Shown: one piece after another, positions 20,317 to 56,654 of the stretch
Layout of the letters: each line of letters begins with the position of its first letter
Numbering within the stretch: position 1 is the stretch's first letter
Source: Bradymonadia bacterium
GTDB taxonomy: Bacteria; Myxococcota_A; Bradymonadia; UBA7976; UBA1532
NCBI GenBank assembly: GCA_049318805.1
Contig: JBMOFP010000003.1
Location: 5,702-69,701, forward strand
DNA length: 64,000 nucleotides
Direction of reading: 5' to 3'
The notes under the pieces: model-generated
The model's input: only the letters and a program-made list of their open reading frames with translations
The model's database searches: none
Told to the model about the DNA's origin: nothing
Translations under genes and position numbers: made by a program

Positions 20317-20428
20317 CCGGGCAGCTCCGTGGGCGCGCCCGGCCCGGGTCGGCGCGCGCGGACCGTGGACGTCTTGATGCGTCGACGGCGGGGACATCGG
20401 CCCGACGGGTGCGCTACGCTCCACCTCC

Positions 20429-22849
20429 GTGAAACGCGCGCTCCTCACGCTTGCCCTCTCGCTCGCGGGTCACCTCACCGCGGCCTGCGGCGACTCGGCC
20501 GATGACACGGTCACCCCGACCGGTGGCGCGGCCTCCTCCGGGGGCGCACGCCCGCCAGGCTCGGGTGGCGGTTTCCCCCCGGGCACCGGCGGCGAGGGTG
20601 TCTCTCCCGACACGGACACCGGCGTCGGCCCGGGTCAGCCTGGCGACGGCCGCGCGCTCTACGCCTCCCTGTGCGCGAGCTGCCACGGCGCCTCGGGCGA
20701 GGGCGGCGCCGGCCCCGCGCTGACGCGCCCCTACGTGCGCGACTACCTGGTGGACTACATCGACGCTTCGATGCCGCTGGGCCGCCCGGAGCTGTGTGAC
20801 CGCGCGTGCGCCGAGGCCGTCGCGGACTACGTGCTGGCCGAGCTGCGCGAGACCCCGCGCCTGGATTGCGCCGCGCCCCAGCCCGGGCCGCGCGCGCTGC
20901 GCCTGCTGAATCGCCGCGAGTGGCTCGCCAGCGTGCGGGCGCTCTTCGCGACCGTCGAGGCGGGCCCGGGCGTGGCGTGCGACACTCTGGCGAACTGCGA
21001 CTGGGCGCGGGCCACCTGCGCCGACGCGGTCTGCGTCGATGATCCTTGTCCCGTGCGCACCTTCGTCTTCGACCCGGCCGGTCGGAGCCCGACCACGGTC
21101 CATGTCGCGGGCTCGTTCAACGATTGGGCGCCGACCATCGCCGCGGGCGGCTGGCCGCTCACCCTCGAGCCGGACCTCGGCCGGTGGCTCGGCAAGTTCC
21201 AGGTCCCCGACGGCGAGCACGCCTACAAGCTCGTGGTCGACGAGCGCGAGTGGCTGACCGACCCCGAGAACCCGCGCCGCTCGCCGGACGGCTTTGGCGG
21301 ACAGAACGCGCTCTTGACCCAGCGCTGCGCCGACGCGGTCGCCCCGGGAGGCGGCGGCTTCGCCCTGCCGGACCTCGAGTCCCTGGCCCGCAACCTGCCG
21401 GCCGAGACGCGACCGAAGGGCTACCCCTACGACACCCACGCCGAAGCGGCCGTCGTGACGACGTCGCACATCGAGGCGTGGCTCCAGGCGGGTCGCGCCG
21501 TGGCCGCGGTCGTCGAGGCGCGTGCGGCGCAGGTGGCCCCGTGCCTGGGCACACCCGGCTGCGGCGCCACCTTCGTGGAGGCCTTCGTCGGTCGCGCATT
21601 CCGCGCCCCGTTGGAGGCCGAGGTCGCCGCCCGCTACCGCACGCTCTTCGCCGAGGTCGAGGCCGAGTCCGGTCCCGCCGCGGCCGTCGCCACGGTCGTC
21701 GAGGCGGTGCTGTCGTCGCCGCTCTTCCTGTATCGGAGCGAGTTGGGGAGCGCCGACGGAGACGGCTTCACCCTCTCGGGCTGGGAGCTCGCCGAGGCCA
21801 TGGCCTACGCCTTCTGGGGCACCCCGCCCGACGCCGCCCTGCGCGCGGCCGGGCTCGAGGGCCGCCTGTCGACCCCCGAGGGCCGCGCCGCCGAGGCCGA
21901 GCGGCTCCTGGCCGATCCCCGCGCCGAGCCCGTGGTGCGCGCCTTCGCCGAGCAGTGGCTCGGGATCGCGGGGCTCGGGCAGTTGGAGAAGCGCGCCGAC
22001 CTCTTCCCCGGCTGGTCTCCGGCGCTGTCGACGGCGCTGCTCGAGGAGTCCCGACGCTTCGTCGCCCACGTGATGCTCGACCCCGAAGCGCGCTTCCCCG
22101 CGCTGCTCACGGCGGACTACACCTTCGCCAACGGCCTGCTGCGCGCGCACTACGGCCTGCAGGGCGACCGCGCGTCGACGACCTACGAGCGCACCCCGCT
22201 GAACGTCGGCGAGCGCGCCGGGGTGCTGGGACACGGCGCGGTCCTCGCGGTCACGGCGCACTCGGACCAGACCTCGCCCATCCGCCGCGGCCTCTTCGTG
22301 CGGGAGCGCCTGCTCTGCACCGAGTTCGGCGCGCCCCCGCCCGACGCCGGCGGTGTGCCCGAGGTGGACCCCAACGCCACCACCCGCGAGCGCTTCCGTC
22401 AGCACACGGCCGAGGCGCGCTGCGCCGCCTGCCACCAGTACATCGACGACGTCGGCTTCGGCTTCGAGGCCTTCGACGCCGTGGGCGCGCATCGAGACAC
22501 CGACCTGGGACGCCCCCTCGACACCTCGGCGGACATGAACGACGTCGAGGGCCTGGGCACCGGCACCTCGGCGCCCTTCGGCAGCCTGCCGGAGCTGGGC
22601 CGCATCCTCGCGGACAGCGAGCGCGCGGAGGTGTGCTTCGCGACGCAGGCGTGGCGGTTCGTCCGCGGTCGTTTGGAGACCCACGGCGGCCTGCAGGGCG
22701 AGCTGGACCGCTGCGAGGTCGAGCGCGCCCTCGCGCCGTTCCGCGCCGGCGGCGGGGACGTGCGCGCGTTGCTCGTCGCGCTGGTTTCGGACCCCGCCTT
22801 CGCGCGCCGCGCAGCGACCGCAGAACCTACGGGGGAGGGCACGCCGTGA
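20429..22849 (+). CDS. DUF1592/DUF1595/DUF1587/DUF1588/DUF1585 multi-domain protein with cytochrome-c-like CxxCH and a CBM48/E-set-like domain; lipoprotein
   Basis: GTG start. Lipoprotein signal LTLALSLAGHLTAACG. Haem motif CASCHG. E-set/CBM48-like block VHVAGSFNDWAP...KFQVPDGEHAYKLVVDEREW. Long conserved DUF15xx body. Confidence 0.8.
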   Translation: MKRALLTLALSLAGHLTAACGDSADDTVTPTGGAASSGGARPPGSGGGFPPGTGGEGVSPDTDTGVGPGQPGDGRALYASLCASCHGASGEGGAGPALTRPYVRDYLVDYIDASMPLGRPELCDRACAEAVADYVLAELRETPRLDCAAPQPGPRALRLLNRREWLASVRALFATVEAGPGVACDTLANCDWARATCADAVCVDDPCPVRTFVFDPAGRSPTTVHVAGSFNDWAPTIAAGGWPLTLEPDLGRWLGKFQVPDGEHAYKLVVDEREWLTDPENPRRSPDGFGGQNALLTQRCADAVAPGGGGFALPDLESLARNLPAETRPKGYPYDTHAEAAVVTTSHIEAWLQAGRAVAAVVEARAAQVAPCLGTPGCGATFVEAFVGRAFRAPLEAEVAARYRTLFAEVEAESGPAAAVATVVEAVLSSPLFLYRSELGSADGDGFTLSGWELAEAMAYAFWGTPPDAALRAAGLEGRLSTPEGRAAEAERLLADPRAEPVVRAFAEQWLGIAGLGQLEKRADLFPGWSPALSTALLEESRRFVAHVMLDPEARFPALLTADYTFANGLLRAHYGLQGDRASTTYERTPLNVGERAGVLGHGAVLAVTAHSDQTSPIRRGLFVRERLLCTEFGAPPPDAGGVPEVDPNATTRERFRQHTAEARCAACHQYIDDVGFGFEAFDAVGAHRDTDLGRPLDTSADMNDVEGLGTGTSAPFGSLPELGRILADSERAEVCFATQAWRFVRGRLETHGGLQGELDRCEVERALAPFRAGGGDVRALLVALVSDPAFARRAATAEPTGEGTP

Positions 22850-29591: not shown

Positions 29592-29618
29592 ACGCTGTAC
29601 GCGGACGGCAAAATCGCG

Positions 29619-32306
29619 GTGGCGAAGAAGGCGAGGACGCTGATGGGGAAGTGTCGAAACGGGGGCGTGTTTTTCGCGCTGGCGAGCCTGCTCGCGGCGT
29701 GCGGCGGGGACGATAAGAGCGAGGGCGGCCAGCCGCCCGTGGAGCAGGACGCCGAGGTCCGCCAGCTCGAGGACGTCGGCACCCCGCCCGACGGCACGAC
29801 CAATGCCGACTCGGGCGACGACGAGGACGCCGGCGGGGGCACCGACGGTGGGCCGGTCGACGATCTCGGGCTCGTGCGCACCGTCGAGGACTGCGAGTCC
29901 GCCTGCCAGGTCTACGCGGACTGCGGCCGGCTCGACGTGTGGAACGGCACGCTCGACGCCTGCCGGGCCGCGTGTGACGCGGGCGCCGGCCCCCGACTGC
30001 CGGACTTCTTCTCCTGCGTGGCCGTGAGCACCTGCGACGCGCTCGACCAGTGCCAGCCGCCGCCGCCGCCACCGGCGACCTGCGCGGACGTCTGCGACGC
30101 GCTCTTCGCCTGCGAGGGCGACACCACGGGTCTTCCGTTCTCCGACTCGGCGGCGTGCCAGGCCGAGGTGTGCGCCGCCGACGCCGAACGCGCCACCGAC
30201 CTGCTGCGGTGCGGCGAAGCGCACGTTCTCGAGGACGCTTGCGAGGTCGACGATTTCGCGTTCTGCCTCGGGGAGGCGTTCTACGACGACTGTTTCCTGG
30301 CCTGTGCCGCCGACGCGGCCTGCGCGGGGGACGCCTCCGTGGCCTCGACCTGGGCCTGTGCCGTGGCGTGCGACGAGGCGACCCGCAGCGGGGACCCCCT
30401 GCAACGGCGCCGAGACGAGCAGCGCCGTGACTGCGTCGTGGCCGCGAGCGGCAACTGCGATGCCATCGGCCGCTGCGGCGCGCCCGCGGTCCGCCCGATC
30501 GTCGGCGACGCGACCGTCGAGGCGCTGTGCGCCGCGAACGCGGACTGCCCGGTCTTCGCCGTCGAGACGTGCGCCGAGACCGCTGCCGCCGTCCTCCCGG
30601 ACCTGGCCGACGGCGCCATCGATTGCCTCCTCGAGCACATGACCGCCGCCTGTGAGGACGGCGCCCTCTACCGCTGCTTCGCGCCCGCCCCCGCCGCGGA
30701 CGGTGGGTGCGAGGAGCACTGCCTCGTGCAGCAGCTCTGCGGGACTCTGCCCGATGGTCAGAGCGAGGGCGCGTGTGTGGACGCGTGCGCGGCGACGCTC
30801 GCGGCCGGTGGTGCGGCCGCGGCGGAGCTCGACGCCTCGTTCCGGTGTGACGCCGAGGCGACCTGCGCCGGGGTCGAGGCCTGTCAGGCTGCGGGTGGTC
30901 CCGTGGACCTTTGCCGGAGCGCGTGCGGTCGACAGGTCGAGTGCGGTGCGTCCGCCGACCTGCAGGGCTGCGAGACCGCGTGTGTCGAGGGCTTCGGCAC
31001 CGTGCGTCGCGCCGCCGAGCGTCTCTGCGCGCAGAACGCCGAGTGCGATCAGGTCGACCTTTGCCTCCCGCCGGCGCCCCCGCCGTGCGCGGCGCTCTGC
31101 GACCTGCTCGACGACTGCAACCTCGAGGGCGACGTGTCGTGCGTCACGGCGTGCGACGACGCGGACTACGTCGCGCCCGAGGCCTTCGACCCGCGCCTGG
31201 CATGTCACGCGTCCACGGCGCGATGCCGTGAGCGCATCGAGTGTGAGGCCGGCGACCTCTCTGGCGGCTACGCGTGCATCGGCTACTGCCGGGCGCGCCT
31301 CGAGTGCAACGGCGACACCTCCGTCGAGGCGCAGCGCGACTGCCTCCAGGCGTGCGGGGCCGGGCCCGGCGGGGCGGACGGACTCGTCTTCGATGCTGCG
31401 GCCGAGTGCCTCGCGGGCGCCGGTCTGGGCGCCGAGTGCGCCGTGCTCCAGGCGTGCCTGAACGACGCCGCCGGGGACGAGACCTGCGACCGGGTCTGCG
31501 GCGCGCAGGCGGACTGCGGCGTCGGCTTCGACGGCGACCCCAGCGCCTGTGTCCGGGCCTGCGAAGCCAGTCTCGACTCCGCCGACGGCGCCGCGGATGC
31601 CGCGTGCACCCTCTCCGCCGTTCGACGGGGCGAAGGGTGCCGTGCGGTCCTCACGTGCAACGACCTGCCCGTCGCCGAGCCGTCCGCGGCGTGCGCCACG
31701 GTGTGCGGCGCCCGCGCGGTCTGCGGAGAGGACCTCGACGCGTATCGGTGCGAGGTCGAGTGTGACGCCGATCCTACGGGGGACGCGGTCCGCGCCGCCT
31801 GCGCCGAGCGGGTCGAGTGCGCTGAACTCCAGCTCTGCGTGGACGCGGCCGGGGTCGTGCCGGACGCCTGCGCGGCCGGTTGCGGCGCCGTGGAGCCCTG
31901 CAACGCCTTCGGGGCGGACGGCGTCGCGGACGACGTGGCGGACTGCGGCGCCCAGTGTGGCGCGAGCGCGATCCTCGAGGGCGCGGAGACCGCCGACGCG
32001 TTGGGCGCCTGCCTGAGCGCCAGCGCCGAGGTCTGCACACGGGACGCCGCCGAGAGCTGTTTCGCGGTGTCCAACGCCGACCCCATCTGCGTCGAGAGCT
32101 ACGACGCGCTCGAGTCGTGCGGCATCGCGGACATCATCCAGGGCGATCGCGACCAGTACTATCTGGATTGCGCGGCGAACCTCGCCGCGGATGAGGCCGG
32201 GACCCGCATGTCCGCGCAGTGCATCATCGACACCGCGGCGATGGCCATGGGCGACATGTTCGCGTGCTTCGGGGTGATCGCGTGTTTCCCTGGCCTGGGG
32301 ATGTGA
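29619..32306 (+). CDS. extremely Cys-rich acidic secreted lipoprotein (about 100 Cys in 895 aa) with internal Cys-spacing repeats
   Basis: Lipoprotein signal GVFFALASLLAACGG. Recurring C-x-A-C...C-G and C-x(3)-C-x(5-7)-C patterns throughout. Asp/Glu/Ala-rich. No detectable enzyme motif. Confidence 0.65.
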   Translation: MAKKARTLMGKCRNGGVFFALASLLAACGGDDKSEGGQPPVEQDAEVRQLEDVGTPPDGTTNADSGDDEDAGGGTDGGPVDDLGLVRTVEDCESACQVYADCGRLDVWNGTLDACRAACDAGAGPRLPDFFSCVAVSTCDALDQCQPPPPPPATCADVCDALFACEGDTTGLPFSDSAACQAEVCAADAERATDLLRCGEAHVLEDACEVDDFAFCLGEAFYDDCFLACAADAACAGDASVASTWACAVACDEATRSGDPLQRRRDEQRRDCVVAASGNCDAIGRCGAPAVRPIVGDATVEALCAANADCPVFAVETCAETAAAVLPDLADGAIDCLLEHMTAACEDGALYRCFAPAPAADGGCEEHCLVQQLCGTLPDGQSEGACVDACAATLAAGGAAAAELDASFRCDAEATCAGVEACQAAGGPVDLCRSACGRQVECGASADLQGCETACVEGFGTVRRAAERLCAQNAECDQVDLCLPPAPPPCAALCDLLDDCNLEGDVSCVTACDDADYVAPEAFDPRLACHASTARCRERIECEAGDLSGGYACIGYCRARLECNGDTSVEAQRDCLQACGAGPGGADGLVFDAAAECLAGAGLGAECAVLQACLNDAAGDETCDRVCGAQADCGVGFDGDPSACVRACEASLDSADGAADAACTLSAVRRGEGCRAVLTCNDLPVAEPSAACATVCGARAVCGEDLDAYRCEVECDADPTGDAVRAACAERVECAELQLCVDAAGVVPDACAAGCGAVEPCNAFGADGVADDVADCGAQCGASAILEGAETADALGACLSASAEVCTRDAAESCFAVSNADPICVESYDALESCGIADIIQGDRDQYYLDCAANLAADEAGTRMSAQCIIDTAAMAMGDMFACFGVIACFPGLGM

Positions 32307-32312
32307 CGCGCC

Positions 32313-33965
32313 TCAGCGGCCCTTCACGCTGCGCACGTACTCGAGCAACAGCCGCAGGGCGCACTGCTCGAGCGCTCGCAGCGCGGTGACCGCCTCGTCG
32401 TCCGTGCGGGCGGCGGTCTGCTCGTTGCGATAGCCGTCGTCCTGCTCCTCGAGGTCGGCGTCGGCGAGGGCCCGCTGGACGTCGACCTCCTCGCCGCGCA
32501 GCGCCGCCAACTGCTCCGCCGAGATGCGCTCTTCACGGCGCGCCTCGGCCAGCGCCGCCGCGCGCGCGCCGCGCTCGATGAAGACGGACTCGACGGCGTG
32601 CAGCATCTGCAAGAGCGCCTTCTGGTCGACGTCTGCGGCGATGCCGCCCGTCAGCCCGCGGACGCCGAGCAGGGCGTGTTCGTAGCGGTCGTCCACCTGG
32701 TCGAGCGCCGCGCAGCGCTCGTCCGCCTCGCGGCTCGTGTCCCGGTGTCGCGCCCGGGCCCGCTCCATGGCGGTCGCGATGCGGCGTGAACGCCGATTGA
32801 GCTGCTCGCGATGCTCGATGCGGGCGCGGGCCGCGTTGTCGGCCACCTCACGCGCCTCGTCGGCCTCCCGGTGGGCCTTCTCGACGTGCGCGCGGGCCGC
32901 GGCGGCGTCCGCGCTCGCCGTGCGGATGGCCGACGGGGCGGCGCCGCGGGGCCAGTACGCCGTGACGTAGTGCTCGAGGAGCTCCGCATAGCGCACCCAG
33001 TCCGCCGTCTGGCCCGGGAGGGGCAGCTCGGGCAGAGGCGCGGCGCGGACCGACGGGGCCGGGTCGAAGCCGCCGGCCATTTGCTCCAGGCAGGCGTCGA
33101 TGGACGCGATGACCGCGGCGGCGTTGACCGGGCGGTCGTCTCGGACCTTCTCGAGGCACTGGTGCACGATCGCGCAGATGTCGGCCGAGAGCTCCGGCAA
33201 GAGCCGCTGCAAGGGCTCGACCTCGGCCTGGACGTGGCGCGCCACGATGTCGGCGGGGTCGTCGCCCTCGAAGGGCGGGCGCCCCGAGAGCATGTGGTAG
33301 AGCACGCCGCCAATCGCGTAGAGGTCGGTGCGCGGGTCCGGCGTCTCGCCTGTCGCCTGCTCCGGCGCCAGGTAGAGCGGCGTGCCCATGATGAACTGCC
33401 CGGTCGTCTCGTGGGCGCGCTCGGGGTCATCTCCAGGCAGCGCGAGGATGCCCAGGTCGATGAGTTTCACGTGGTCCGGGAATCGACCATCCGCGCACAG
33501 GAAGACGTTCTCAGGCTTCACGTCGCGGTGAATGGCGCCTCGGCGGTGCAGGACCTGCAGGGCCTCGCACATCTGCCGCGCGATGCGGAGCGCGCGCACG
33601 GGCTCGAGCTTCGGCTGACGCTCGAGCTCCTGCATCAGGTCGTGCCCGTGGAGGCGCTCCATGACGAGGAACGCACGCCCGTCCGAGAGCACCCCGCCCT
33701 CGTAGACCGACACGAGGTGTGGATGGCGCAGCCCACGCCCGACGTTCCACTCCGTCTGCATGCGCGCGACGATGAGCGCGGCCTCGGGCACGTCGGTTCG
33801 GCTGATCTTGACCGCGACGCGACGCGCGTCCTCGCGGCGGCGCGCGTCGAAGACCTCGGAGGTCGCCCCCTCGCCGATCTTGCCGAGCAACGTATAGCCC
33901 AGGCGGAGGAGCTCTCCCGCCACGTTGATGCGGGGCAGCGGCCCGGTGATGAGCGGACCTTCCAT
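32313..33965 (-). CDS. eukaryotic-like Ser/Thr protein kinase with C-terminal coiled-coil region
   Basis: ATG at 33965 (MEGPLITGPL...). Kinase motifs GEGATSEVF, VAVK, HRDVKPEN, DLG (DFG variant), GTPLYLAPE. The C-terminal roughly 200 aa are charged and helical. Confidence 0.85.
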   Translation of the reverse strand: MEGPLITGPLPRINVAGELLRLGYTLLGKIGEGATSEVFDARRREDARRVAVKISRTDVPEAALIVARMQTEWNVGRGLRHPHLVSVYEGGVLSDGRAFLVMERLHGHDLMQELERQPKLEPVRALRIARQMCEALQVLHRRGAIHRDVKPENVFLCADGRFPDHVKLIDLGILALPGDDPERAHETTGQFIMGTPLYLAPEQATGETPDPRTDLYAIGGVLYHMLSGRPPFEGDDPADIVARHVQAEVEPLQRLLPELSADICAIVHQCLEKVRDDRPVNAAAVIASIDACLEQMAGGFDPAPSVRAAPLPELPLPGQTADWVRYAELLEHYVTAYWPRGAAPSAIRTASADAAAARAHVEKAHREADEAREVADNAARARIEHREQLNRRSRRIATAMERARARHRDTSREADERCAALDQVDDRYEHALLGVRGLTGGIAADVDQKALLQMLHAVESVFIERGARAAALAEARREERISAEQLAALRGEEVDVQRALADADLEEQDDGYRNEQTAARTDDEAVTALRALEQCALRLLLEYVRSVKGR

Positions 33966-34092
33966 CGGGGGCGGTATAGCACACCCCGACGCCGGCTCCG
34001 ACGAGGAATCATGGTCCCCGTGCGTCGGCGGTTCGCGTACACTCCCGCGCGGCCCCGTGGAGCGGCGCCGACACGGCCCGCGAGGAGATTCG

Positions 34093-36411
34093 ATGCGCTC
34101 CAGGACGTTCCTGCTCCCTCTCTTGCTCGTGTTGCACGCGTGCGGCGGTGACGGGTCCGGCGGTGGCGGCGATCCGGCCGACACCGCGGTGACCGACGCC
34201 GCCCCTCCCGCCGACTCCGGCCCCGTGGGCGGCATGTCGTCCGACGTGGGGCCCGGCGCCGACGCGGCGCGCACCGCCTCGCTCGCCATCGAACCCGTCG
34301 AGGTGGACCTGGGCCGCGTCGGCCTCGGTCAGGAGGCCGAGACGACCGTACTGCTGCGGAACACGGGGGACGCTGACCTCACGGTGACGACCTTCGCGGG
34401 GCTGCAGACGCCGTTCGCGAGCAGCCGCATGCCGCCGCTGCCCATCGGCGCCGGGCAGACCCGCATGCTCGCAATCCAGTTCTCGCCCGAGGCAGCCGGG
34501 CCCGTGGAGCAGGTCGTGACCTTCGAGACCGAGCCCCCGCTCGAAGCGGCGGCCACGCTGACGCTCCGCGGTGAGGGCATCTCCGCCGAGGCCACCCTGG
34601 TGACCGAGGTCGTCGACTTCGGCGTGGTCGCGCCGGGCGAGCCGACGAGCCGCCCGTTGCAGCTCCGCAACGACTCCGTGGACACCGCACTGCAAATCAC
34701 CGGTCTCGAGGGGCTGATGGCGCCCTTCGAGGTGCCGAACGGGCAGGTCCCGCGCGAGGTGTCGGGCGGCCAGACCGGCCAGGTCATCGTGCAGTTCGCG
34801 CCCGCCGCCGCCGGGGACTTCGAGCAGAACGTCGTGTTGCGCACGACCGCCGGCGACTTCAACGTCACCCTACGGGGACGCGCGATCGTGCGCGGCGACC
34901 TCGTGGTCGAGGCGGTCTCTCCCGCGTGGGCGCCCACGGACCGTGAGACCGTGATCGAGGTCACGGGCGGTCCCTTCGAAGCCGTCCCGCGCGCCATTCT
35001 TGTGGGCGAGGTCGCGTTGGAGTCGCTCGAACGGGTCGACGCGGGCCGTGTTCGAGGCACTCGACCGGCCGGCGGCGCGGCCACACGCACCATCGAGGAC
35101 CTGGTCGACGTGCGGGTCGAGGTCGGCGCGTCCTTCGGCATCCTGACGGATGCGTTCACGTTGACGCCCCCCGTCGCGGAAGCCACGCCCATCGAGGCGG
35201 CGGCTCTCACGGCTGCAAACGAAGACCCTCGCCCGCTGGGCGTCGAGGGTAACCCGTGGCAACTCGCGCTGGGCGCCGTGCCCGAGGGTCAAGTGCTCAC
35301 CCTCGGCCCCGGGGCCGTCGTGGTGGTGCCCGAGGGTGGGGGCCTGCAGGTCGATGGTGTGCTCACGGCCGACGGCACCGCAGGCCAGATCGTGTGGGCG
35401 CCCGAGGCGACGAACGGGACCTGGGCGGGCCTGACCTTCGGGCCGGTCATGCCGACGAGCGCGCTGCGCAAGGTCGTGCTGGAGCGCGCCGGGACCGACG
35501 GCGCCGCGATCATTTCGAGCCAGGCCCTCGAGCTGACGGGCGTTCGTATCCTCGACGCTCAGGGGGGCGGTGTGCGGGTCGACGGCACGGGCACACTGGT
35601 GCTCATCAGCAGCCGCATCGAAGGCGCTCAGGGGCCCGCGGTGGAACTCGCTTCGGGCGAGGCGACCATTTTTCGCTTTCAGAACAACGACATCCGACGC
35701 GCTGGTCTCGCGTTCGTCGGTGCGCCTCACCAGTTCGGTCGGCCCCTGGGGGCCGGCAACGTCCTCCAGGAGAACGCCGAGAACGCGTTGGTCGTTCGCG
35801 GCCTCGCCGTGGGTGACGCCGACCTGGGCAACCAGCCCGTAGGCCTGCCTTATCTCCTGGGCATCGCGGATGCGGCGCTCTCCGTGCCGCGCGGCGCGAC
35901 GCTCGAGCTCGGCGCCGCCGTGGTCGGTGCGCTCGGCGGTGTGCTGGACCTCGAGTCGCAGACCACGCTGCCCGCGGGCCTGGCGCTCGACGCACGCGGC
36001 GGAGCGTCGGTGCGGATTCGCGGGCCGCTGACCGTGGGTGGGACCGCGGAGGCGCCCGTCACCCTGGGCGGCGAGGTCCAGTGGGACGGCGTCCAGCTCG
36101 AGGGCGGCGGCCGCCTCGAGGGCGGACACCTGCAGGTCCAGGGCGGGCCCGTCCGGCTCGGCGCGAACGTGCCCGCTTTCGAGGGGCTCAGCGTAACGGC
36201 CGGCGGGGACGCGCTCCTCATCGAAGCCGATGCCACACTCGAGAGCCTACGTGTGGAAGGCGGCGCGCTCGTCGTTCGAGGCGGCGTGGGCCGACTCGCG
36301 GGGGTGGCCACGGGCGAGGTTCGATTCGAAGCGCCCGGCGCGTGCGCGGACTGGGACCTCACGGAGTTGCTGGACGGCGCGGGCGCGCCGGTGAGCCCGA
36401 TCTGCCCGTGA
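34093..36411 (+). CDS. secreted lipoprotein with two HYDIN/ASPM-like (choice-of-anchor D) Ig-fold domains plus a right-handed beta-helix region
   Basis: Lipobox LLLVLHACGG. Two segments resembling a conserved ASPM-like repeat motif. Gly-rich parallel beta-helix-like repeats in the C-terminal half. Confidence 0.7.
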   Translation: MRSRTFLLPLLLVLHACGGDGSGGGGDPADTAVTDAAPPADSGPVGGMSSDVGPGADAARTASLAIEPVEVDLGRVGLGQEAETTVLLRNTGDADLTVTTFAGLQTPFASSRMPPLPIGAGQTRMLAIQFSPEAAGPVEQVVTFETEPPLEAAATLTLRGEGISAEATLVTEVVDFGVVAPGEPTSRPLQLRNDSVDTALQITGLEGLMAPFEVPNGQVPREVSGGQTGQVIVQFAPAAAGDFEQNVVLRTTAGDFNVTLRGRAIVRGDLVVEAVSPAWAPTDRETVIEVTGGPFEAVPRAILVGEVALESLERVDAGRVRGTRPAGGAATRTIEDLVDVRVEVGASFGILTDAFTLTPPVAEATPIEAAALTAANEDPRPLGVEGNPWQLALGAVPEGQVLTLGPGAVVVVPEGGGLQVDGVLTADGTAGQIVWAPEATNGTWAGLTFGPVMPTSALRKVVLERAGTDGAAIISSQALELTGVRILDAQGGGVRVDGTGTLVLISSRIEGAQGPAVELASGEATIFRFQNNDIRRAGLAFVGAPHQFGRPLGAGNVLQENAENALVVRGLAVGDADLGNQPVGLPYLLGIADAALSVPRGATLELGAAVVGALGGVLDLESQTTLPAGLALDARGGASVRIRGPLTVGGTAEAPVTLGGEVQWDGVQLEGGGRLEGGHLQVQGGPVRLGANVPAFEGLSVTAGGDALLIEADATLESLRVEGGALVVRGGVGRLAGVATGEVRFEAPGACADWDLTELLDGAGAPVSPICP

Positions 36412-36448
36412 TGAGCGCGGGGCCCGTGCCGACCGCGCCGAGGCGCCG

Positions 36449-37525
36449 ATGGGTCCTGGACCCGGGGGCGTCGCGTTCATGCTGACGGCGGTCGTCGTCG
36501 TCGTCTGTTTCGCGCTCGTAGGCCTCGTGCGCTCGGCCCTGCAGTGGCTGGTCGCCTGGGTGCTCGGCGCCCGACCGTTGCACCTGATCGTCGGGGTCGG
36601 GCCGGCCATCTTTCGCCGGGGCATCGCGGGTGTGCCCCTCGAGATCCGCGCCGTACCGCTGGGCGGTCACGTGCAGTGGGGGGATACACCCTACGCCGTG
36701 CCGCCCCCGGGACCGCTGGGCGCGAGATTCGCGCTGGCGCTGTCCGGACCCCTCGCGACGCTGGTCCTCGCGTTCTTTTTGCTGTTCGGTCTGCACGTCT
36801 CGTTTCAGGCGCGCACGGTCGAAGGGCGGCCCGTCGCGACGAACGTGGTCTCGCTGCCGCTGGGCAGCGCGGTCGCCGCCGGTCTGCGTCCGGGCGACGT
36901 CATCACCGCGGTCGACGGGCAATCGGTCGAGTTCCATGACGAGATCGTCGGGCTCGTCGGTCGAAGTGGGGGGCGTGCCCTCGAGGTGACGGTCTCGCGT
37001 CCGCCCCCGGGTACGCCGTCCAGGGACGACCACATTCGCGGCACGCTCATGGGGCGCGCGCTGCTGGGGCCGAAAGTCGACGCGTCGTGGAGCGAGCTGG
37101 AGCTCACCGTCCAGCCCGAGCCGACGCCGCGGGGGTACGAACTCGGCGTGGAGCCCCGTGTGGGGCGCTTTGGCACCGACCGATGGGCGTCGGCGTTGGG
37201 CTTCGCCGGAGCCGAGCTCGGGGCGAGCCTGGTCGAGCTGCTGGGGCCGCGCCCGGGGCCGCTGTCGATCCTGCCGACGGTCGACGCGTGGTGGGGCCCC
37301 TTCTTTCACCTGCTCGCGCAGATCGCCCTCGTCGCGTTCATCGTCAACCTGGCCTTGCCCGCGCACGACCTGCACCGCCTTTGCCTGCTGGCCTTCGAGC
37401 TCGTTCTGCGTCGGCCGGTCCGACCCAACGCCGAGCTCGCGCTCGTTCGCTTCGAGCTGCTGCTCTTGCTGGTCCTGGTGGTCGCGTGGATCGCGCGGGA
37501 CGTCGTCACACTCCTGAACGGTTGA
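36449..37525 (+). CDS. site-2 protease (M50/RseP-like) homologue with PDZ domain and a degenerate HExxH motif
   Basis: The first TM region aligns with RseP HEFGHFWVARRCGV...SIGFGP, but reads ALQWLVAWVLGARPLHLIVGVGP (H, E and H lost). PDZ-like segment GLRPGDVITAVDGQSV. The LDGGH region reads LPAHDLH. Alternative start at 36479. Confidence 0.65.
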   Translation: MGPGPGGVAFMLTAVVVVVCFALVGLVRSALQWLVAWVLGARPLHLIVGVGPAIFRRGIAGVPLEIRAVPLGGHVQWGDTPYAVPPPGPLGARFALALSGPLATLVLAFFLLFGLHVSFQARTVEGRPVATNVVSLPLGSAVAAGLRPGDVITAVDGQSVEFHDEIVGLVGRSGGRALEVTVSRPPPGTPSRDDHIRGTLMGRALLGPKVDASWSELELTVQPEPTPRGYELGVEPRVGRFGTDRWASALGFAGAELGASLVELLGPRPGPLSILPTVDAWWGPFFHLLAQIALVAFIVNLALPAHDLHRLCLLAFELVLRRPVRPNAELALVRFELLLLLVLVVAWIARDVVTLLNG

Positions 37526-37533
37526 GGCCCGCC

Positions 37534-38487
37534 TTGAAGTTCGCGTTTCGCGTCGCCCTCGCCTGTGCCACCGCCACGACCGCATGCAGCGTGGACGACG
37601 CCGACCCTTGCGCCGAGGGCGAGCCCTTCGCCGAGTCGACCCTGCGCGCACGCGTCGAGACGCTCGCCGCACAAGAGCGGGGTGGGCGCCTGCCGGGCTC
37701 CGCGGGGGACGAGGCCACCCGCGACGACCTGCGCGCGCTGCTCGGCTGCTTCGGCCTGGAGGCCCCCGAGGGGGGCTTCGTGCAGCCCTTCGTCGATGGA
37801 GAGGGGCGGTCCACGGGCAACGTCGTGGGGATTCTCCGGGGCGGCGATCCCGAGGTCGCCGACGAGGTCATCGTGCTCGGCGCGCACCACGACCACCTGG
37901 GGCAGGACGAGACCGGGGTCTACGCGGGGGCCAACGACGACGCCTCGGGGGTCGCCGCGCTCCTCTCGGTCGCCCAGGCCATGGCGGCGCGGGACACCCC
38001 GCCGCGGCGCACCGTCGTCTTCGCGATGTTCGGCGCCGAGGAGCTGGACCTCGATGGCTCGAGCTTCTACGTGGAGAACCCGCCCCCGGGGCTGTCCATG
38101 GACGCGACGGTCTTCATGATCCAGCTCGACATGGTGGGGACCTACGCCCAGGCGGGTCAGGTCTACGCCCTCGACGCCGCCCCGGGGACACGGGGGCGCG
38201 CCGCCGTCGAGGCTCAGCTCTCGGACTTCCCCGACCTCGAGGTGAACCTCGACGAGCCCGGGGACAGCTCGGACCAGGTCAACTTCTGCGACGCCGGGGT
38301 GCCGACGCTGTTCTTCCACACCCCCGACGAGGCCTGCTACCACCAGACCTGCGACACGCCGGAGAACCTGGACTACGTGCACCTGGCGATGATCGCCGAG
38401 CTCGTCGACGCCACGGTCCGCGAGCTCGCCGACAGCGATGCAGACCTCGCGGCGGAGCGGGGCGAGGGGTGTCCGCAGGCAGAGTGA
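37534..38487 (+). CDS. M28 family Zn-aminopeptidase lipoprotein
   Basis: TTG start gives a lipoprotein signal LKFAFRVALACATATTACS. M28 motifs VLGAHHDHLG, GANDDASGVAALL, MFGAEE. Confidence 0.8.
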   Translation: MKFAFRVALACATATTACSVDDADPCAEGEPFAESTLRARVETLAAQERGGRLPGSAGDEATRDDLRALLGCFGLEAPEGGFVQPFVDGEGRSTGNVVGILRGGDPEVADEVIVLGAHHDHLGQDETGVYAGANDDASGVAALLSVAQAMAARDTPPRRTVVFAMFGAEELDLDGSSFYVENPPPGLSMDATVFMIQLDMVGTYAQAGQVYALDAAPGTRGRAAVEAQLSDFPDLEVNLDEPGDSSDQVNFCDAGVPTLFFHTPDEACYHQTCDTPENLDYVHLAMIAELVDATVRELADSDADLAAERGEGCPQAE

Positions 38488-38538
38488 ACCCCGGCGGTCC
38501 GGTGCCTGGCAGGACGCTCGGACCTGACCACTCGCGCT

Positions 38539-39249
38539 TCAGAAATACAGTCCCAGTCGGGCGTCCAGGCTCACCCGGTGAGGCCAGTCGTGGAAGACGG
38601 CCTTGGGTGAGCTCTCGTACGCATTATCGTCGTCGAATTCGACCTCTTGTTCGACCCAGCGTTTGCTGGCCATGAGTGAAACGAACGCCCCGCTCGAGCC
38701 GCCCACGGCCAGAGTGAAGCCGGCCCCGATCTGCGCGTGGGACTGCGAGATTTCGCCCTCGAACGAGCCAGATGACCTTTCGGCCAGCACCTTGTACTGA
38801 CCCGCAATCGCTCGGCCGGCCTCGAAAGCGCCCGTGAGAAAGAAGCTCCGGTCATCGTCGAGCGGGATGTCGACCTCGGTCCCAAGGACCAGCGACGTCG
38901 TGGAACTGCTCTGTTCCATGTCGCTGTCGTCCAGGTTGCGGTCGGTGCGCTCGTATTCGATGCCGACCTGCAACTGCAGGCCGGCCGTCACGAAGTACCC
39001 GAATCTGGGCGAGAATCGGTACTGATCCACGCTGCCACTGACTTTGCTCTCGTCGTCCTCGGGTTCCCTCCAATCGCTCCGCTCGATGTTCTGGTCAATC
39101 GCGGTCGTCGAGACCGAGAACGCCCCCGACAGTGTCCTCTTGGAGACTTGACCGAAACGCGCCGGGTCCGCGAGCGCAGTTCCAACGCCGACTGTGTTCA
39201 GAATGAATGGGGTGAGCGCGAGGAGAGACAGACGTTTGGTGGTCGACAT
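38539..39249 (-). CDS. outer-membrane beta-barrel protein (OmpA/OmpW-like), lower GC than neighbours
   Basis: Signal peptide MSTTKRLSLLALTPFILNTVGVGTALA. Alternating amphipathic beta-strands. C-terminal ...RLGLYF with a terminal Phe. Confidence 0.65.
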   Translation of the reverse strand: MSTTKRLSLLALTPFILNTVGVGTALADPARFGQVSKRTLSGAFSVSTTAIDQNIERSDWREPEDDESKVSGSVDQYRFSPRFGYFVTAGLQLQVGIEYERTDRNLDDSDMEQSSSTTSLVLGTEVDIPLDDDRSFFLTGAFEAGRAIAGQYKVLAERSSGSFEGEISQSHAQIGAGFTLAVGGSSGAFVSLMASKRWVEQEVEFDDDNAYESSPKAVFHDWPHRVSLDARLGLYF

Positions 39250-39358
39250 GACTTCACACTGCCTTCGGTCGATGGTTGTAATGACTCCATTCAGCAATGG
39301 GCATGCCATCGAGAGTGCCGGGGCCGCGGAACGCGCCGACGTTGATCGAGCAAGGAAA

Positions 39359-39404
39359 GTGACGTCACACGTTCGGCGGAGATGACACTGTGTCATGTGA
39401 CACC
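39359..39404. promoter_or_regulatory. cluster of perfect palindromes (GTGACGTCAC; ATGACACTGTGTCAT; GTGACAC half-site) in a low-GC intergenic region, candidate LysR-type (T-N11-A) operator
   Basis: Read directly from the sequence: GTGACGTCAC at 39359-39368, ATGACAC-T-GTGTCAT at 39382-39396, and GTGACAC at 39397-39403. They sit between the LysR gene end and the OMP gene start. Confidence 0.4.
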
Positions 39405-39436
39405 GCCCGCCATCGGTCGCCGGTGGCGGTGCCGGA

Positions 39437-40336
39437 TCAACCGAGCGGGGCGACCGCGTCGCGCAGCATCTGCAAAAGCGCGTCCACGGCGGGACTCGAG
39501 GTGGGCCGTGAGGGCATCAACGCGTAGAGGCTGACCGACTTCCAGATCCAGCCGGGGCAGAGGTCGACGAGCCGGCCCGCCTCGAGGTGGGCGCGCAGCC
39601 CGTACATCGGAAAGACCCCCACGCCTGCGCCCGCGAGCATCAGCGCGAGCACCGCCTCGCCCGTGTTGGCCTCCGCGCGGACGTGAGGCGTCAGCTCGTC
39701 TGCTGCACCGTCCGGTCCGATGAAACGCATCGGGCCTGGGGACAGGAGCGCATGGCGCACCCACGGCGCGTGGGCCAACTCCCGGGGACGAGACACCGAA
39801 CCGAGCGTCTCGGCCAATGCGGGGGAGGCGACGATGGGCTCGTCGAACGTCGCCAGTTTCCGCGCCACGAAGATGGACGACCTCGGCGCCCCGAGACGCA
39901 CGGCGACGTCGATGTTCTGCGCCAGGATGTCGTGCGGGGCATCGTCGGCGACGATCTCGACGCGCAGTTTCGGCCACGCCCGCACCATCCTCGCCACAAC
40001 GGGCGCGACCAGCTGTGGTGCCAGATCGACCGTGGTCGCCACCCGCAACGAGCCCGCCGGTTCGCGTTGGGCCTCGGCCAGCCGATGCCCCAGGTTCGAC
40101 AGCACATCCGTGACCTGTAGTACGGAGTCGAGCACATCCTGACCGGTCTGCGTGAGTCGCAGGCGGCGCGTCGTGCGCTCGAGAAGGCGTACGCCGCACT
40201 GGGCCTCGAGCTGCCGCACGCGGTCGCTCACCACGCTCTTCGAGAGCTTGAGCTCCGCCGACGCACCGGTGAACGAGCCGTGCCGTACGACCGCGGCGAA
40301 GGCCAACAGGAGCGGACCGTCGGCGGCAGTGATCAT
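39437..40336 (-). CDS. LysR-family transcriptional regulator
   Basis: N-terminal HTH LLLAFAAVVRHGSFTGASAELKLSKSVVSDRVRQLE. LysR substrate-binding domain. Confidence 0.85.
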   Translation of the reverse strand: MITAADGPLLLAFAAVVRHGSFTGASAELKLSKSVVSDRVRQLEAQCGVRLLERTTRRLRLTQTGQDVLDSVLQVTDVLSNLGHRLAEAQREPAGSLRVATTVDLAPQLVAPVVARMVRAWPKLRVEIVADDAPHDILAQNIDVAVRLGAPRSSIFVARKLATFDEPIVASPALAETLGSVSRPRELAHAPWVRHALLSPGPMRFIGPDGAADELTPHVRAEANTGEAVLALMLAGAGVGVFPMYGLRAHLEAGRLVDLCPGWIWKSVSLYALMPSRPTSSPAVDALLQMLRDAVAPLG

Positions 40337-40432
40337 TGTTCGGAAGTACCGAACACTGATTGCGGAATCAACCGATTGTTCGGGAACGCGTGGGGCGCAA
40401 CCCTGAAGCCGGTCGAGTCACCCCCCCGAACG

Positions 40433-40858
40433 ATGGAGAGAGTCATGAACACCGAAGCCGCCCGTGCCCTCGTCGCCCCCTTCTACGACGCCCTGAATCA
40501 GCCTGCCGCGAAGGATGTCCGCGCCCTCGTGGAGTCCGTCGTTCACCCCGAATGGCGCTCCTTCGCCGGTGAGAACCTCAGCAAGGACCGCGACGCCTTC
40601 ATCGGGCAGGTGCTCGGCTTCGGCAAGCTGATCCCCGACCTCACCTGGGAGATCAAAGAGGTCGTGGCCGCCGACGGTAAGATCGTGGTGCGCAGCGAGG
40701 CCCGCGGGACGCCGGCCGGCGACTTCATGGGCGTGCCCCACAGCGGGCGCGGCTTCGCCATCATGACGCTCGACCTGCACACGGTGCGCGATGGCCGGCT
40801 GGTTCGCGCCGACCACGTGGAGGATTGGGCCCTGGCGCTGCGTCAGCTCCGCGGCTGA
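40433..40858 (+). CDS. SnoaL-like ester cyclase / NTF2-fold protein
   Basis: Divergent from the LysR gene. SnoaL-like polyketide-cyclase pattern (VAPFYDALNQ..., IKEVVAADGKIVV, DHVEDW). Confidence 0.7.
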   Translation: MERVMNTEAARALVAPFYDALNQPAAKDVRALVESVVHPEWRSFAGENLSKDRDAFIGQVLGFGKLIPDLTWEIKEVVAADGKIVVRSEARGTPAGDFMGVPHSGRGFAIMTLDLHTVRDGRLVRADHVEDWALALRQLRG

Positions 40859-41586
40859 GCGCCCCCGGCGAGGGTCGCCGGAGCCTCGCCGCCGTAGTTC
40901 TTCTCGAGGTACGCCACGATGTCGTCGGACTCGTAGATCGCCGTCTCGGTGTTCGCGTCCTCGAGGAAGGGGACCTGCATCTTGCCGCCTCGGGCGACGA
41001 GCTCGCCGCGCAGGCGCCCGTTCTTCGCCACGTTGCGGCAGAGGTACTCGAGGTTCAGGCGGCACAGCGCTTCCCGGACCTTGCGGCAGTAGGGCGAGGC
41101 CTCGAAACCCCACAGGACGAGGCGGTGCTCGGGCTGAATGCGGATCGCCGACGGCGCGTAGGTCGTGCCGCCTCGACTCCGCAACACCGAGGTGAGGGTG
41201 GAGCCGAGGTCGTCGAGCGGAGAGATCCGGCGCCGCCAGCGGGCCCGGGGCGTGCGGTAGGTCGCGTGCACGTAGTCGATGATGTCCTCGGACTCGAAGA
41301 GCCGCGCCCCGGTGTTCGGGTCCACGAGGAACGGGAACTGCTGGTGCCCCATGAGGCGCAGCACGGTCTCCCGGTGGTTCGAGCCCCGTGCGCACGGTCG
41401 CGCGACGTACTCGAGGTCGAGCTCCGAGAGCGTCTCGCGGACCTTGCGGCAGTAAGGGCAGGACTCGAACTCGTACAGCTCGAGGGGCAGCTCGGGGAGG
41501 CGGGTGGCGGGCGCCGTGACACTCAGCCCGCGCCCGAGACGCGCGACGGACGCGGCGTAGCTGTGAACGTTGTCGAGGGTGGACAT
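40843..41586 (-). CDS. tandem glutaredoxin/GST-N-like thioredoxin-fold protein (two CPYC motifs)
   Basis: Two repeats of LYEFESCPYCRKVRE and LWGFEASPYCRKVRE, each followed by an FL(V/E)DxN region. Confidence 0.7.
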   Translation of the reverse strand: MSTLDNVHSYAASVARLGRGLSVTAPATRLPELPLELYEFESCPYCRKVRETLSELDLEYVARPCARGSNHRETVLRLMGHQQFPFLVDPNTGARLFESEDIIDYVHATYRTPRARWRRRISPLDDLGSTLTSVLRSRGGTTYAPSAIRIQPEHRLVLWGFEASPYCRKVREALCRLNLEYLCRNVAKNGRLRGELVARGGKMQVPFLEDANTETAIYESDDIVAYLEKNYGGEAPATLAGGAQPRS

Positions 41587-41646
41587 GGGGACGGCGTTAC
41601 CGGTTGACGTGGGGCGTGTCAATTCGGGGCCCGGTCGTCTGGCGGC

Positions 41647-43350
41647 GTGTCGTACTCTGCGTTCATGCGCGCGACACACCGTCTGACCTGGGTTCTGGCC
41701 GCGATGCTGGGCTGCGCCGAGAGCGGGCGCGACGCCGATGTGGCGGACGCGCAGTCGCCGAGGGTCCCGCGCCTCGACGCCGACGTGACGGGGCCCGTCC
41801 CTGTCGCGGACCTGGGGTCGGCCCGCGACGGTCTACGCCCGCCCGCGGATGCGTCCGTGCAGGCCGCCGACGCCGCGCGAGACCTCGGCGTTCCGCCGGA
41901 CGCCGCGCCTACGGGTGCGGACGCGACGCCCCCGCCGGCCGTCGATGCGGCGCCCATCCCGGTCGTCGACGCCGGGCCCGCACCCGACTTGGACGCCGCG
42001 CTCGCCCCCGCGGACGCCGCCGCCCCCGTGCACCCCGCGCTCCCCTGGGACGACGACCCCTGCGCGACCCTCGACGTCGGCGACGATCCCTACGCCGGTC
42101 CGGTCGCTCGATTCACCGCCGCCGACGACGCCGCACCCCCGCCTCAGGGCGGACTCGTCGTGCTCGGCTCTTCGACGGTGCGTCGTTGGGAGGATGCCCA
42201 GCGCCTGCTTTCGGCCTGGGACCCGCTGCAACGGGGCCTCGGAGGCGCGCGTCTCGTCGACCTCGCGCGGTGGACCGAGCCGCTCGTCGTCCGCCACGCC
42301 CCCTCGGGCGTGCTCGTTTTCGCCGGCACGAACGACATCGCCGCCGGCCGCACCGTGGAACAGACCGTCGATGCGTTCCGCTGCCTGGTCACACGGGTGG
42401 ACGCGGCGCAGCCCGGGACGCCGGTGCTCTACATCGGCATCACACCGGCGCCGTCGCGATGGGGGTCCTGGCCCGCCGCGGCGGAGGTGAACGCACGCAT
42501 CGCCGCGCTGGCCGATCAGCACCCCAGCATCGTCTACGTGGACACACCCGCGGCGTTCCTGGAGACAGGCAGCCCGCCGGATCCGTCGCTCTTCGTCGGC
42601 GACCTGCTCCACCTCTCGGACACAGGCTATGCGCTGTGGGGGGACCTGGTGCGCGACGCCGTCGAGGCCCATGTGCCGCGTGCGGTGTCCCCTCTGCCCC
42701 CAGGTCCGCCCCCGGGCACCTACCTGCGCGTCGATCTGGGGCCCTTCAACCCCGAAGATGGCCGCCTCGCTCCGGCCTCGGACCGCTTCGACATCCGGTG
42801 GAATGCGTGGCCCGACGCTCGCGGCGGCGACCAGGTGCTCGCGGGCGAGGCGCTCCGTGGCCTGGTCTCCACACGGGGTGACCGCACTCAGGTGGACCTG
42901 CTCATCGCCGGCGGCTTTCGCTCCAACGGGCTCCGCAATGGCGGCTTGCTCGCGCCGGACTTCGCCCACCTCGGCACCCTCGCCGTGCCCGAGGCCACGG
43001 AGGACTTCTTTTTTACCGGCGGTTCCGACGATCCCGCCGGGCTCACCTTCTCCGGGCTCTCCCCGGATGCGACCCATACGCTGCGCCTCTTCGCGAGCCG
43101 AGCGAGCGGCGACGAGCGTCGGACGACACGCTTCATCGTCTACGGCGGCGGGCCCTCCAGCGAGGCCACGGTGCTCACGACGGGGCCGGGCATCGGCGTG
43201 AACGGCGGCGACGCGAACGTGAGCGAGCTCGTGGTCTTCACCGGGCTCGTGCCCGACACGCGCGGTCGGCTGCACCTCGACGTCCGCATCGACGCGGGGC
43301 AGTTCGCCTACCTGAATCTGCTGGAGCTCGAGGTCGAGGCGGCCCGCTGA
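41647..43350 (+). CDS. SGNH/GDSL hydrolase-family lipoprotein with C-terminal beta-sandwich-like domain
   Basis: Signal peptide or lipobox (MRATHRLTWVLAAMLGCAESG; alternative ATG at 41665). An Ala/Asp/Pro-rich linker. SGNH blocks VVLGSST, FAGTNDIAAG, DLLHLSDTGY. Confidence 0.75.
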   Translation: MSYSAFMRATHRLTWVLAAMLGCAESGRDADVADAQSPRVPRLDADVTGPVPVADLGSARDGLRPPADASVQAADAARDLGVPPDAAPTGADATPPPAVDAAPIPVVDAGPAPDLDAALAPADAAAPVHPALPWDDDPCATLDVGDDPYAGPVARFTAADDAAPPPQGGLVVLGSSTVRRWEDAQRLLSAWDPLQRGLGGARLVDLARWTEPLVVRHAPSGVLVFAGTNDIAAGRTVEQTVDAFRCLVTRVDAAQPGTPVLYIGITPAPSRWGSWPAAAEVNARIAALADQHPSIVYVDTPAAFLETGSPPDPSLFVGDLLHLSDTGYALWGDLVRDAVEAHVPRAVSPLPPGPPPGTYLRVDLGPFNPEDGRLAPASDRFDIRWNAWPDARGGDQVLAGEALRGLVSTRGDRTQVDLLIAGGFRSNGLRNGGLLAPDFAHLGTLAVPEATEDFFFTGGSDDPAGLTFSGLSPDATHTLRLFASRASGDERRTTRFIVYGGGPSSEATVLTTGPGIGVNGGDANVSELVVFTGLVPDTRGRLHLDVRIDAGQFAYLNLLELEVEAAR

Positions 43351-56503: not shown

Positions 56504-56654
56504 CGCAGTCACGAATCTCCGCACAGGAGATCGCCGAGGTCCAATTTGGTCTGATGCCCGCGCCCTCGGGCCTGAAGTTCGTTGCGGAACGACCGTCCAG
56601 AGAAGATTCTCCGCGCACTCAGAGCAACCCACCCTGCCCTCAAGGAGCTTCCCC

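Follow-up and report, generated by a model that had tools for sequence, protein, structure and literature searches.

A small family of RseP-type site-2 protease homologues lacking the HExxH motif, probably pseudoproteases, in freshwater Myxococcota and Bradymonadia

Active site-2 proteases (S2Ps) carry the zinc-binding and catalytic motif HExxH in their first transmembrane segment, TM1 (PMC7728848, PMC10202637). In RseP, the zinc ion is held by the two histidines of TM1 and an aspartate of TM3, and the glutamate activates water (PMC10202637; PMC7728848). The architecture of Group I S2Ps is characterized by one or more PDZ domains between TM2 and TM3 (PMC7728848), and a 2023 review of the bacterial enzymes attributes HExxH and LDG to all S2Ps (PMC10202637). 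Intramembrane protease homologues that do not cleave are known from other settings: the chloroplast S2P homologue EGY3 of Arabidopsis, which has no HExxH, counts as a pseudoprotease and has a stabilising role (PMC10978774), the iRhoms are rhomboid pseudoproteases (PMC3149277), and the Bacillus subtilis rhomboid YqgP has a protease-independent adaptor role (PMC7231995). No bacterial S2P pseudoprotease was found in the literature searched. Here we describe an open reading frame (ORF) at positions 36449-37525 of a 64,000-nucleotide stretch of a Bradymonadia genome (contig JBMOFP010000003.1, hereafter the window), the product of which is an S2P homologue of the RseP type that has lost HExxH; a preceding sequence-only reading had proposed it to be a catalytically dead member of this family.

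The loss is evident in MAFFT alignments with canonical RseP proteins and with sets of 11 and 78 close active relatives, in all of which the H-E-x-x-H column is occupied by R28-S/A29-x-x-Q32 in the family represented by the window protein. Both histidine ligands and the catalytic glutamate are gone from TM1, as the sequence-only reading had stated; its register, which placed ALQWL opposite the motif, was shifted by two or three residues, and R28-S-A-L-Q32 is correct. Yet another register results from a pairwise HMMER alignment that opens a gap of 3 residues. The choice of register does not affect the conclusion, as no intact copy of the motif lies elsewhere: neither the protein nor any of the six frames of 36200-37700 contains HExxH, HxxEH or H[ED]xxH. 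The first histidine of the protein is residue 45, and its sole histidine pair is H306-x-x-H309. This pair belongs to the second remodelled site, in TM3, where the sequence N-L-L-P-L-P-A-L-D-G-G-R of active relatives corresponds to N300-L-x-(gap)-L-P304-A-H306-D307-L308-H309-R310. The replacement of LDGGH by AHDLH had been recognized before; what had been overlooked is that N300, P304 and the aspartate zinc ligand D307 are retained. Both glycines of LDGG are lost, to L308 and H309, invariantly across the family, and H306 and H309, which flank D307 and are likewise invariant, are new with respect to the 78 active relatives.

Other positions have changed together with these two sites. The asparagine of the TM2 motif 'GPxxN' is T104 in the family, deletions of 12 and 5 residues (17 in total) separate it from active relatives between the PCT helix and TM3, and further differences are fixed around TM1 and the hairpin (R to W37, M to A41, V to P43, S to I47) and towards the C-terminus (W to P284, F to L313, H to V333, G to E336; active to family in each case). 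The membrane-reentrant beta-hairpin has the invariant residues G49, G51, P52, P70, G72, G73 and V75 in common with active relatives, and many PDZ residues are invariant specifically within the family.

Assignment to the M50/S2P superfamily does not depend on the missing motif. The Pfam profile Peptidase_M50 (PF02163) matches residues 34-343 with 35.9 bits (cutoff 27.2; E-value 6.6e-9), and this match opens at profile position 19, past the HExxH region. The PDZ_6 profile scores slightly below its cutoff (26.3 bits against 27; E-value 6e-6), and PDZ_2 and PDZ also match. Among chains of the Protein Data Bank (PDB), phmmer recovers the RseP proteins of Aquifex, Kangiella and Escherichia coli with E-values of 1e-9 to 7e-8. 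An AlphaFold2 (AF2) model computed from an input alignment of 57 sequences (mean predicted local distance difference test score, pLDDT, 83.8; predicted template modelling score, pTM, 0.73) matches by Foldseek, as top PDB entries, RasP (9a6w) and the RseP structures of Kangiella (7w6y), Aquifex (9j83/9j82) and E. coli (7w6x) with E-values of 3e-17 to 4e-15; fragments of RseP PDZ domains rank next with probability 1.00. The homology to RseP and the retention of the PDZ domain that had been read from the sequence are thus borne out by Pfam, phmmer and the model. A single PDZ domain lies between TM2 and TM3, as in Group I, and the protein is an M50/S2P homologue of the RseP type belonging to this PDZ-bearing group. 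It is not an RseP orthologue by the dedicated profiles: it scores 45.4 bits with the TIGR00054 equivalog model (cutoff 147.55) and 15 with NF008046 of NCBIfam (cutoff 477), and it lacks the tandem PDZ arrangement. In public records the protein nevertheless goes under the names 'RseP', 'regulator of sigma E protease' and 'site-2 protease family protein', with no annotation as inactive. As the protein fails the defining catalytic feature of S2Ps, filing it as RseP or as an active site-2 protease is misleading.

A profile search of 1.84e9 representative sequences returned one full-length cluster at 50% identity together with a truncated fragment (P0007), and the score falls from 612 to 151 bits beyond the family; at 90% identity, six or seven clusters make it up. 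The gene is carried by four metagenome-assembled genomes (MAGs), namely two of Myxococcales, one from Lake Zurich and one from Lake Baikal, one assigned to Myxococcota and one of Bradymonadia from Lake Mendota, and by five JGI contigs found in a metagenome scan, all from already known lineages. The family is confined to uncultured freshwater Myxococcota/Bradymonadia. It comprises about five lineages, which form one monophyletic clade. These are 52-79% identical, have an intact ORF in each case and agree at 117 invariant positions; R28, Q32, H74, H116, H287, H306, D307, H309, R310 and E317 are invariant in all of them, metagenome copies included. The share of invariant positions is 32% over the whole protein, 39% in the PDZ domain, 41% in TM3 and 49% in the beta-hairpin, which is the most conserved long element. 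Ratios of nonsynonymous to synonymous substitution rates (dN/dS, Nei-Gojobori) were calculated for pairs of loci, designated here by L numbers. The ratio is 0.168 between the window and L001, where four syntenic neighbours have 0.27-0.39, and 0.144 between L003 and L004, where five syntenic neighbours have 0.04-0.13; deeper pairs (dS of about 0.9-1.1) were taken as saturated and left out. The fold is kept, the catalytic residues are absent and purifying selection acts across the lineages, a combination expected of a pseudoprotease. The loss of HExxH is a fixed, selected feature of this small family.

Closest to the family, with 31-36% identity, are M50 proteins of 370-480 aa with a single PDZ domain, which make up about 80 clusters and come from Myxococcota/Bradymonadia MAGs. 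The post-PDZ insert (...TVxPExT..GYxLG...ARFG) is common to the family and to the closest active Myxococcota clade, in which HExxH and NxxPxPxLDG are kept by 80 of 80 full-length members. In a neighbour-joining tree on Kimura distances (no bootstrap), the family is monophyletic and nested inside the single-PDZ M50 clade of Myxococcota/Bradymonadia, on a stem of 0.715 substitutions per site as compared with 0.04-0.10 for the adjacent internal branches. Monophyly and the long stem match a single loss that was accompanied by rapid remodelling and gave way to constraint. HExxH is missing, among 354 retrieved M50 proteins whose N-terminus is complete, only in this family and in one unrelated protein, P0075. 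The latter is a two-PDZ RseP-type protein of 523 aa that has HEMGQ (second histidine to glutamine) and keeps P-I-P-R-LDG; here, in another lineage, the zinc site has degenerated independently and in part. A tblastn scan with seven canonical RsePs as queries detected no second M50 gene in the window, and none of the assemblies of six active relatives is a MAG that holds the pseudoprotease. We also considered that an orthologue had lost its site in place, and rejected this possibility because the loci of active relatives have unrelated contexts. The sister subclade of active single-PDZ M50 genes, represented by the loci of P0312 and P0290 (L005, L006, L024-L027), has a recurrent context of its own: all these loci have, upstream of the active gene, a divergently transcribed gene for a protein of 900-1024 aa without Pfam hits, and a DUF3419 gene downstream of it, directly adjoining in L024-L027 and about 5 kb away in L005/L006.

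The loss of both histidines and the glutamate strongly suggests, from sequence, that the protein is catalytically dead, and we consider it probable that it is a non-catalytic descendant of an RseP-type S2P that binds rather than cleaves. In the mechanism that we propose, an ion pair between R28 and D307, supported by hydrogen bonds of Gln32 and of H306/H309, would take over from Zn2+ as the link between TM1 and TM3 and would fill the catalytic cavity, and L308 and H309 would occupy the space that two glycines leave open for water and substrate. Hydrolysis of a peptide bond would then be impossible, and binding by the beta-hairpin and the PDZ domain would persist. The most conserved parts are the elements with which RseP holds its substrate (beta-hairpin and PDZ) and the former active-site helix; because the ligands are replaced and the substrate-holding elements stay under the strongest constraint, a protein that does not cleave and remains capable of binding is suggested. 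Its most likely role would be that of a receptor, holder or scaffold in the membrane, engaging either a transmembrane segment or a C-terminal tail that is exposed. As a partner, the lipoprotein encoded co-directionally upstream would be the best candidate, with its ...[IAV]CP C-terminus as a lead.

Several points weigh against this interpretation. The R28-D307 contact is placed by homology to the RseP zinc site and not by distances, and 'invariant' refers to a small sample of about five lineages only. The lipoprotein gene is upstream in three of five lineages (listed for L001, L002/L015 and L012 alongside the window) and missing in the other two (L003/L004), so that the upstream neighbour named in the sequence-only reading holds for part of the family and the lipoprotein is not an obligatory partner. 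Finally, the retained Asp and the two new invariant His of H306-D307-L-H309, which share a single helix turn, could make up a metal site of another kind.

The main alternative to a scaffold role is sequestration of substrate from an active S2P. The protein would then be a decoy or regulator of regulated intramembrane proteolysis, an inactive paralogue that competes with an active RseP or single-PDZ S2P of the cell for site-1-cleaved substrates or pairs with the active enzyme, thereby damping or gating a sigma/anti-sigma pathway instead of acting on the lipoprotein encoded next to it. The substrate-holding elements are kept and most conserved, the family descends from a clade of active paralogues of the same phylum, and iRhoms act in this way for rhomboids (PMC3149277), all of which would agree with such a function; however, a gene for an extracytoplasmic function (ECF) sigma or anti-sigma factor adjoins the pseudoprotease gene in none of the examined loci, and the long stem together with the family-specific invariant PDZ residues suggests a new, specific partner over simple competition. 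We regard the decoy function as rather unlikely, although it deserves consideration before the other alternatives.

Still less probable, in our judgement, is a relocated active site, with which the protein would still be a metallo-hydrolase or a metal-binding protein; H306/H309 (i, i+3 on TM3) with D307 or with E317/E329/E336 would rebuild the zinc site on TM3 and R28/Q32 would assist catalysis or substrate binding. H306, D307 and H309 are invariant, the two histidines have been gained relative to active relatives, the membrane core or its vicinity holds further invariant histidines (74, 116 and 287), and a review describes 'migrated' catalytic residues for some apparent pseudoenzymes (PMC10211241). 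Against this, no Glu/Asp stands at a general-base position beside a histidine pair, bulky residues (Leu and His) have taken the place of the glycine pair that opens the cavity, the TM2 asparagine is lost, 17 residues are deleted ahead of TM3, and the positively charged arginine found exactly where a ligand used to be points to a replacement of the metal by charge and not to a new metal site. In a related and equally doubtful version, TM3 (H306-D307-x-H309) would carry a hitherto unseen, inverted intramembrane metallo-site, with R28/Q32 in a second-shell or transition-state role, that could be catalytic or metal-sensing. Alternatively, as in the mechanism proposed above, the Arg-Asp ion pair would be a natural case of structural replacement of the catalytic zinc within a membrane protease fold.

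A decaying pseudogene or functionless relic might be suspected from the lost catalytic motif and the long branch; it is very improbable given the intact ORF in every lineage, the 117 positions that remain invariant across lineages only 52-56% identical, and dN/dS values of 0.14-0.17 that fall below those of the syntenic neighbours for the window and L001. An artefact of misalignment, frameshift or assembly hiding an intact HExxH is practically ruled out by the six-frame scan, by the stop codon upstream of the ORF and by the agreement of independent assemblies. The relevant stop is an in-frame TGA at 36392, 57 nt before the ORF, and the preceding gene stops at 36411; a missing N-terminus is excluded because of these two boundaries. 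The sequence was recovered in many independent assemblies (JGI, ENA, Logan, NCBI), and its composition is coding-like (GC content at codon positions 1/2/3 of 0.78/0.51/0.87, in a window of 72% GC). Most gene callers choose M11 as the start of the protein. A scan for promoters and terminators gave nothing beyond weak intragenic matches. The features of the gene and its neighbours are collected in Table 1.

Table 1. Features of the pseudoprotease gene, its product and adjoining genes (positions in the window)
Feature	Position	Strand	Basis and remarks
RseP-like pseudoprotease gene	36449..37525	+	ORF; 358 aa before the stop codon; 348 aa from the alternative start ATG 36479
TM1 helix, carrier of HExxH in active S2Ps	36461..36562	+	residues 5-38; AF2 helix, pLDDT 92-95; hydrophobic segment
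R28-S-A-L-Q32 replacing H-E-x-x-H	36530..36544	+	MAFFT alignments; R28 and Q32 invariant in family
Membrane-reentrant beta-hairpin (IVGVGP ... PLGGHVQW)	36575..36679	+	residues 43-77; AF2 strands 43-59/62-77
TM2 helix	36716..36805	+	residues 90-119 (AF2)
Single PDZ domain	36827..37003	+	residues 127-185 by Pfam, 129-184 in AF2; Foldseek matches to RseP PDZ
Post-PDZ beta-rich insert and PCT-like helix	37004..37243	+	residues 186-265; AF2 strands 215-241, helix 246-265
TM3, kinked	37292..37408	+	residues 282-320; AF2 helices 282-302/307-320
N300-L-A-L-P304-A-H306-D307-L-H309-R310, remodelled NxxPxPxLDGG	37346..37378	+	alignment; 'LPAHDLHR' invariant in family
TM4 helix	37424..37519	+	residues 326-357; AF2 and hydrophobicity
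Ser/Thr protein kinase ORF	32313..34289	-	start uncertain; divergent from pseudoprotease gene
Upstream lipoprotein gene	34093..36411	+	772 aa; lipobox LHAC; two choice-of-anchor-D/Ig-like domains; beta-helix
M28 peptidase lipoprotein	37534..38487	+	317 aa; TTG start 9 nt past stop; outside conserved unit

The genes flanking the pseudoprotease gene in the window are those that the sequence-only reading had named, a beta-helix lipoprotein upstream and an M28 aminopeptidase, itself a lipoprotein, downstream; their distribution among the lineages differs. Further upstream lies a syntenic block that encodes an amidohydrolase, citrate synthase, a methyltransferase, a protein of about 900 aa and, on the minus strand, the Ser/Thr kinase. 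This block was found in the window, L003, L004 and L015, its visible portion also in L001, and the kinase is present wherever the upstream flank is available (in the window and these four loci). The 904-aa protein adjoining the kinase (29592-32306, plus strand) has no Pfam hit and is syntenic in L001, L003, L004 and L015 with 46-69% identity. The lipoprotein gene is separated from the pseudoprotease gene by 28-37 nt in the window and L001 (37 nt in the window) and is probably its co-transcribed operon partner. In L015, only a PaaI thioesterase gene lies between the two, with 4-bp overlaps. This PaaI/4HBT thioesterase gene is found in the Baikal-type lineage (L015, 9519-10004; L016, 3624-4109), and P0421 (508 aa), a database entry, results from a read-through call that fuses the thioesterase with the pseudoprotease. 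The C-terminus of the lipoprotein (window 36290-36411; also L001, L002 and L015) has the conserved pattern ...C[AP]xWDL[TS][EG]L...[IAV]CP-COOH with two cysteines, and this tail could be a disulfide loop or a PDZ ligand.

The M28 gene, which served the sequence-only reading as an argument for a role in envelope proteolysis, accompanies the pseudoprotease gene in no strain but that of the window, with its near-identical contigs; it is missing beside the orthologues at L001-L004 and L015, so that this argument falls. At L001, an HTTM/DCC1 gene directly adjoins the pseudoprotease gene, whereas in the window 5.8 kb lie between the two; other genes follow the pseudoprotease gene in L015 and in L003/L004. 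The intervening 5.8-kb block (37534-43350), present only in the window strain, encodes the M28 lipoprotein, a minus-strand ORF of 285 aa, LysR, SnoaL, a double GST_N/glutaredoxin protein and a GDSL lipase. The 285-aa ORF (38539-39396) has no Pfam hit, and the local GC content dips there to 0.665. Two more distant genes of the window are recorded in addition: one for a protein of 788 aa that carries a SIR2_2 (SIR2-like) domain (54482-56848, minus strand), which is possibly an anti-phage defence gene, and one for a cytochrome-c protein (20378-22849, plus strand) with the domains PSD5, PSD4, PSCyt3 and PSD2 (DUF1595, DUF1592, DUF1588, DUF1585). The same cytochrome-c type, together with DUF1501, occurs near the active relative P0312 in L005/L006, which is probably coincidental.

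The value of the family is limited by its tiny size, its restriction to uncultured freshwater hosts and a function that is so far predicted from sequence. Intramembrane pseudoproteases such as iRhoms, Derlins and EGY3 have been informative about how clients are recognized without being cut, and here a natural, selected and zinc-ligand-free RseP-type protein is found in which the histidine ligands have become invariant Arg and Gln. Structural studies could employ it as a natural 'substrate-trap' form of RseP, and the replacement of a buried metal site could be examined on it as a test case. Automated labels such as 'RseP' and 'site-2 protease family protein' are misleading for this family; the single-PDZ M50 clade carries either the second of these labels or the name 'M50 family metallopeptidase'.

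In comparison with known systems, the pseudoprotease resembles the Group I S2Ps RseP and RasP (7W6X, 7W6Y, 9J82) in its four-TM core, beta-hairpin and PDZ between TM2 and TM3, and has the TM3 Asn, Pro and Asp in common with them. It differs from them in the missing HExxH, the change of LDGG to HDLH, one PDZ rather than the tandem of E. coli, and the 17-residue deletion before TM3. With the single-PDZ M50 clade (among others P0015, P0016, P0019 and P0312) it shares the length class, the single PDZ and the post-PDZ insert, whereas all 80 full-length members of that clade keep HELGH and NLLPLPALDGG and their genomic contexts differ. The iRhoms, Derlins and YqgP embody the same concept, an intramembrane protease fold that binds clients without cleavage, although their fold and catalytic type are unrelated. 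In function, the closest analogue of the family is EGY3, which as an S2P homologue likewise lacks HExxH and is held to be non-proteolytic, acting by the stabilisation of other proteins. EGY3 is a eukaryotic, plastid-located protein from the EGY branch, which has no PDZ domain; its loss of HExxH is independent, and it has no sequence relationship to the pseudoprotease beyond the S2P family.

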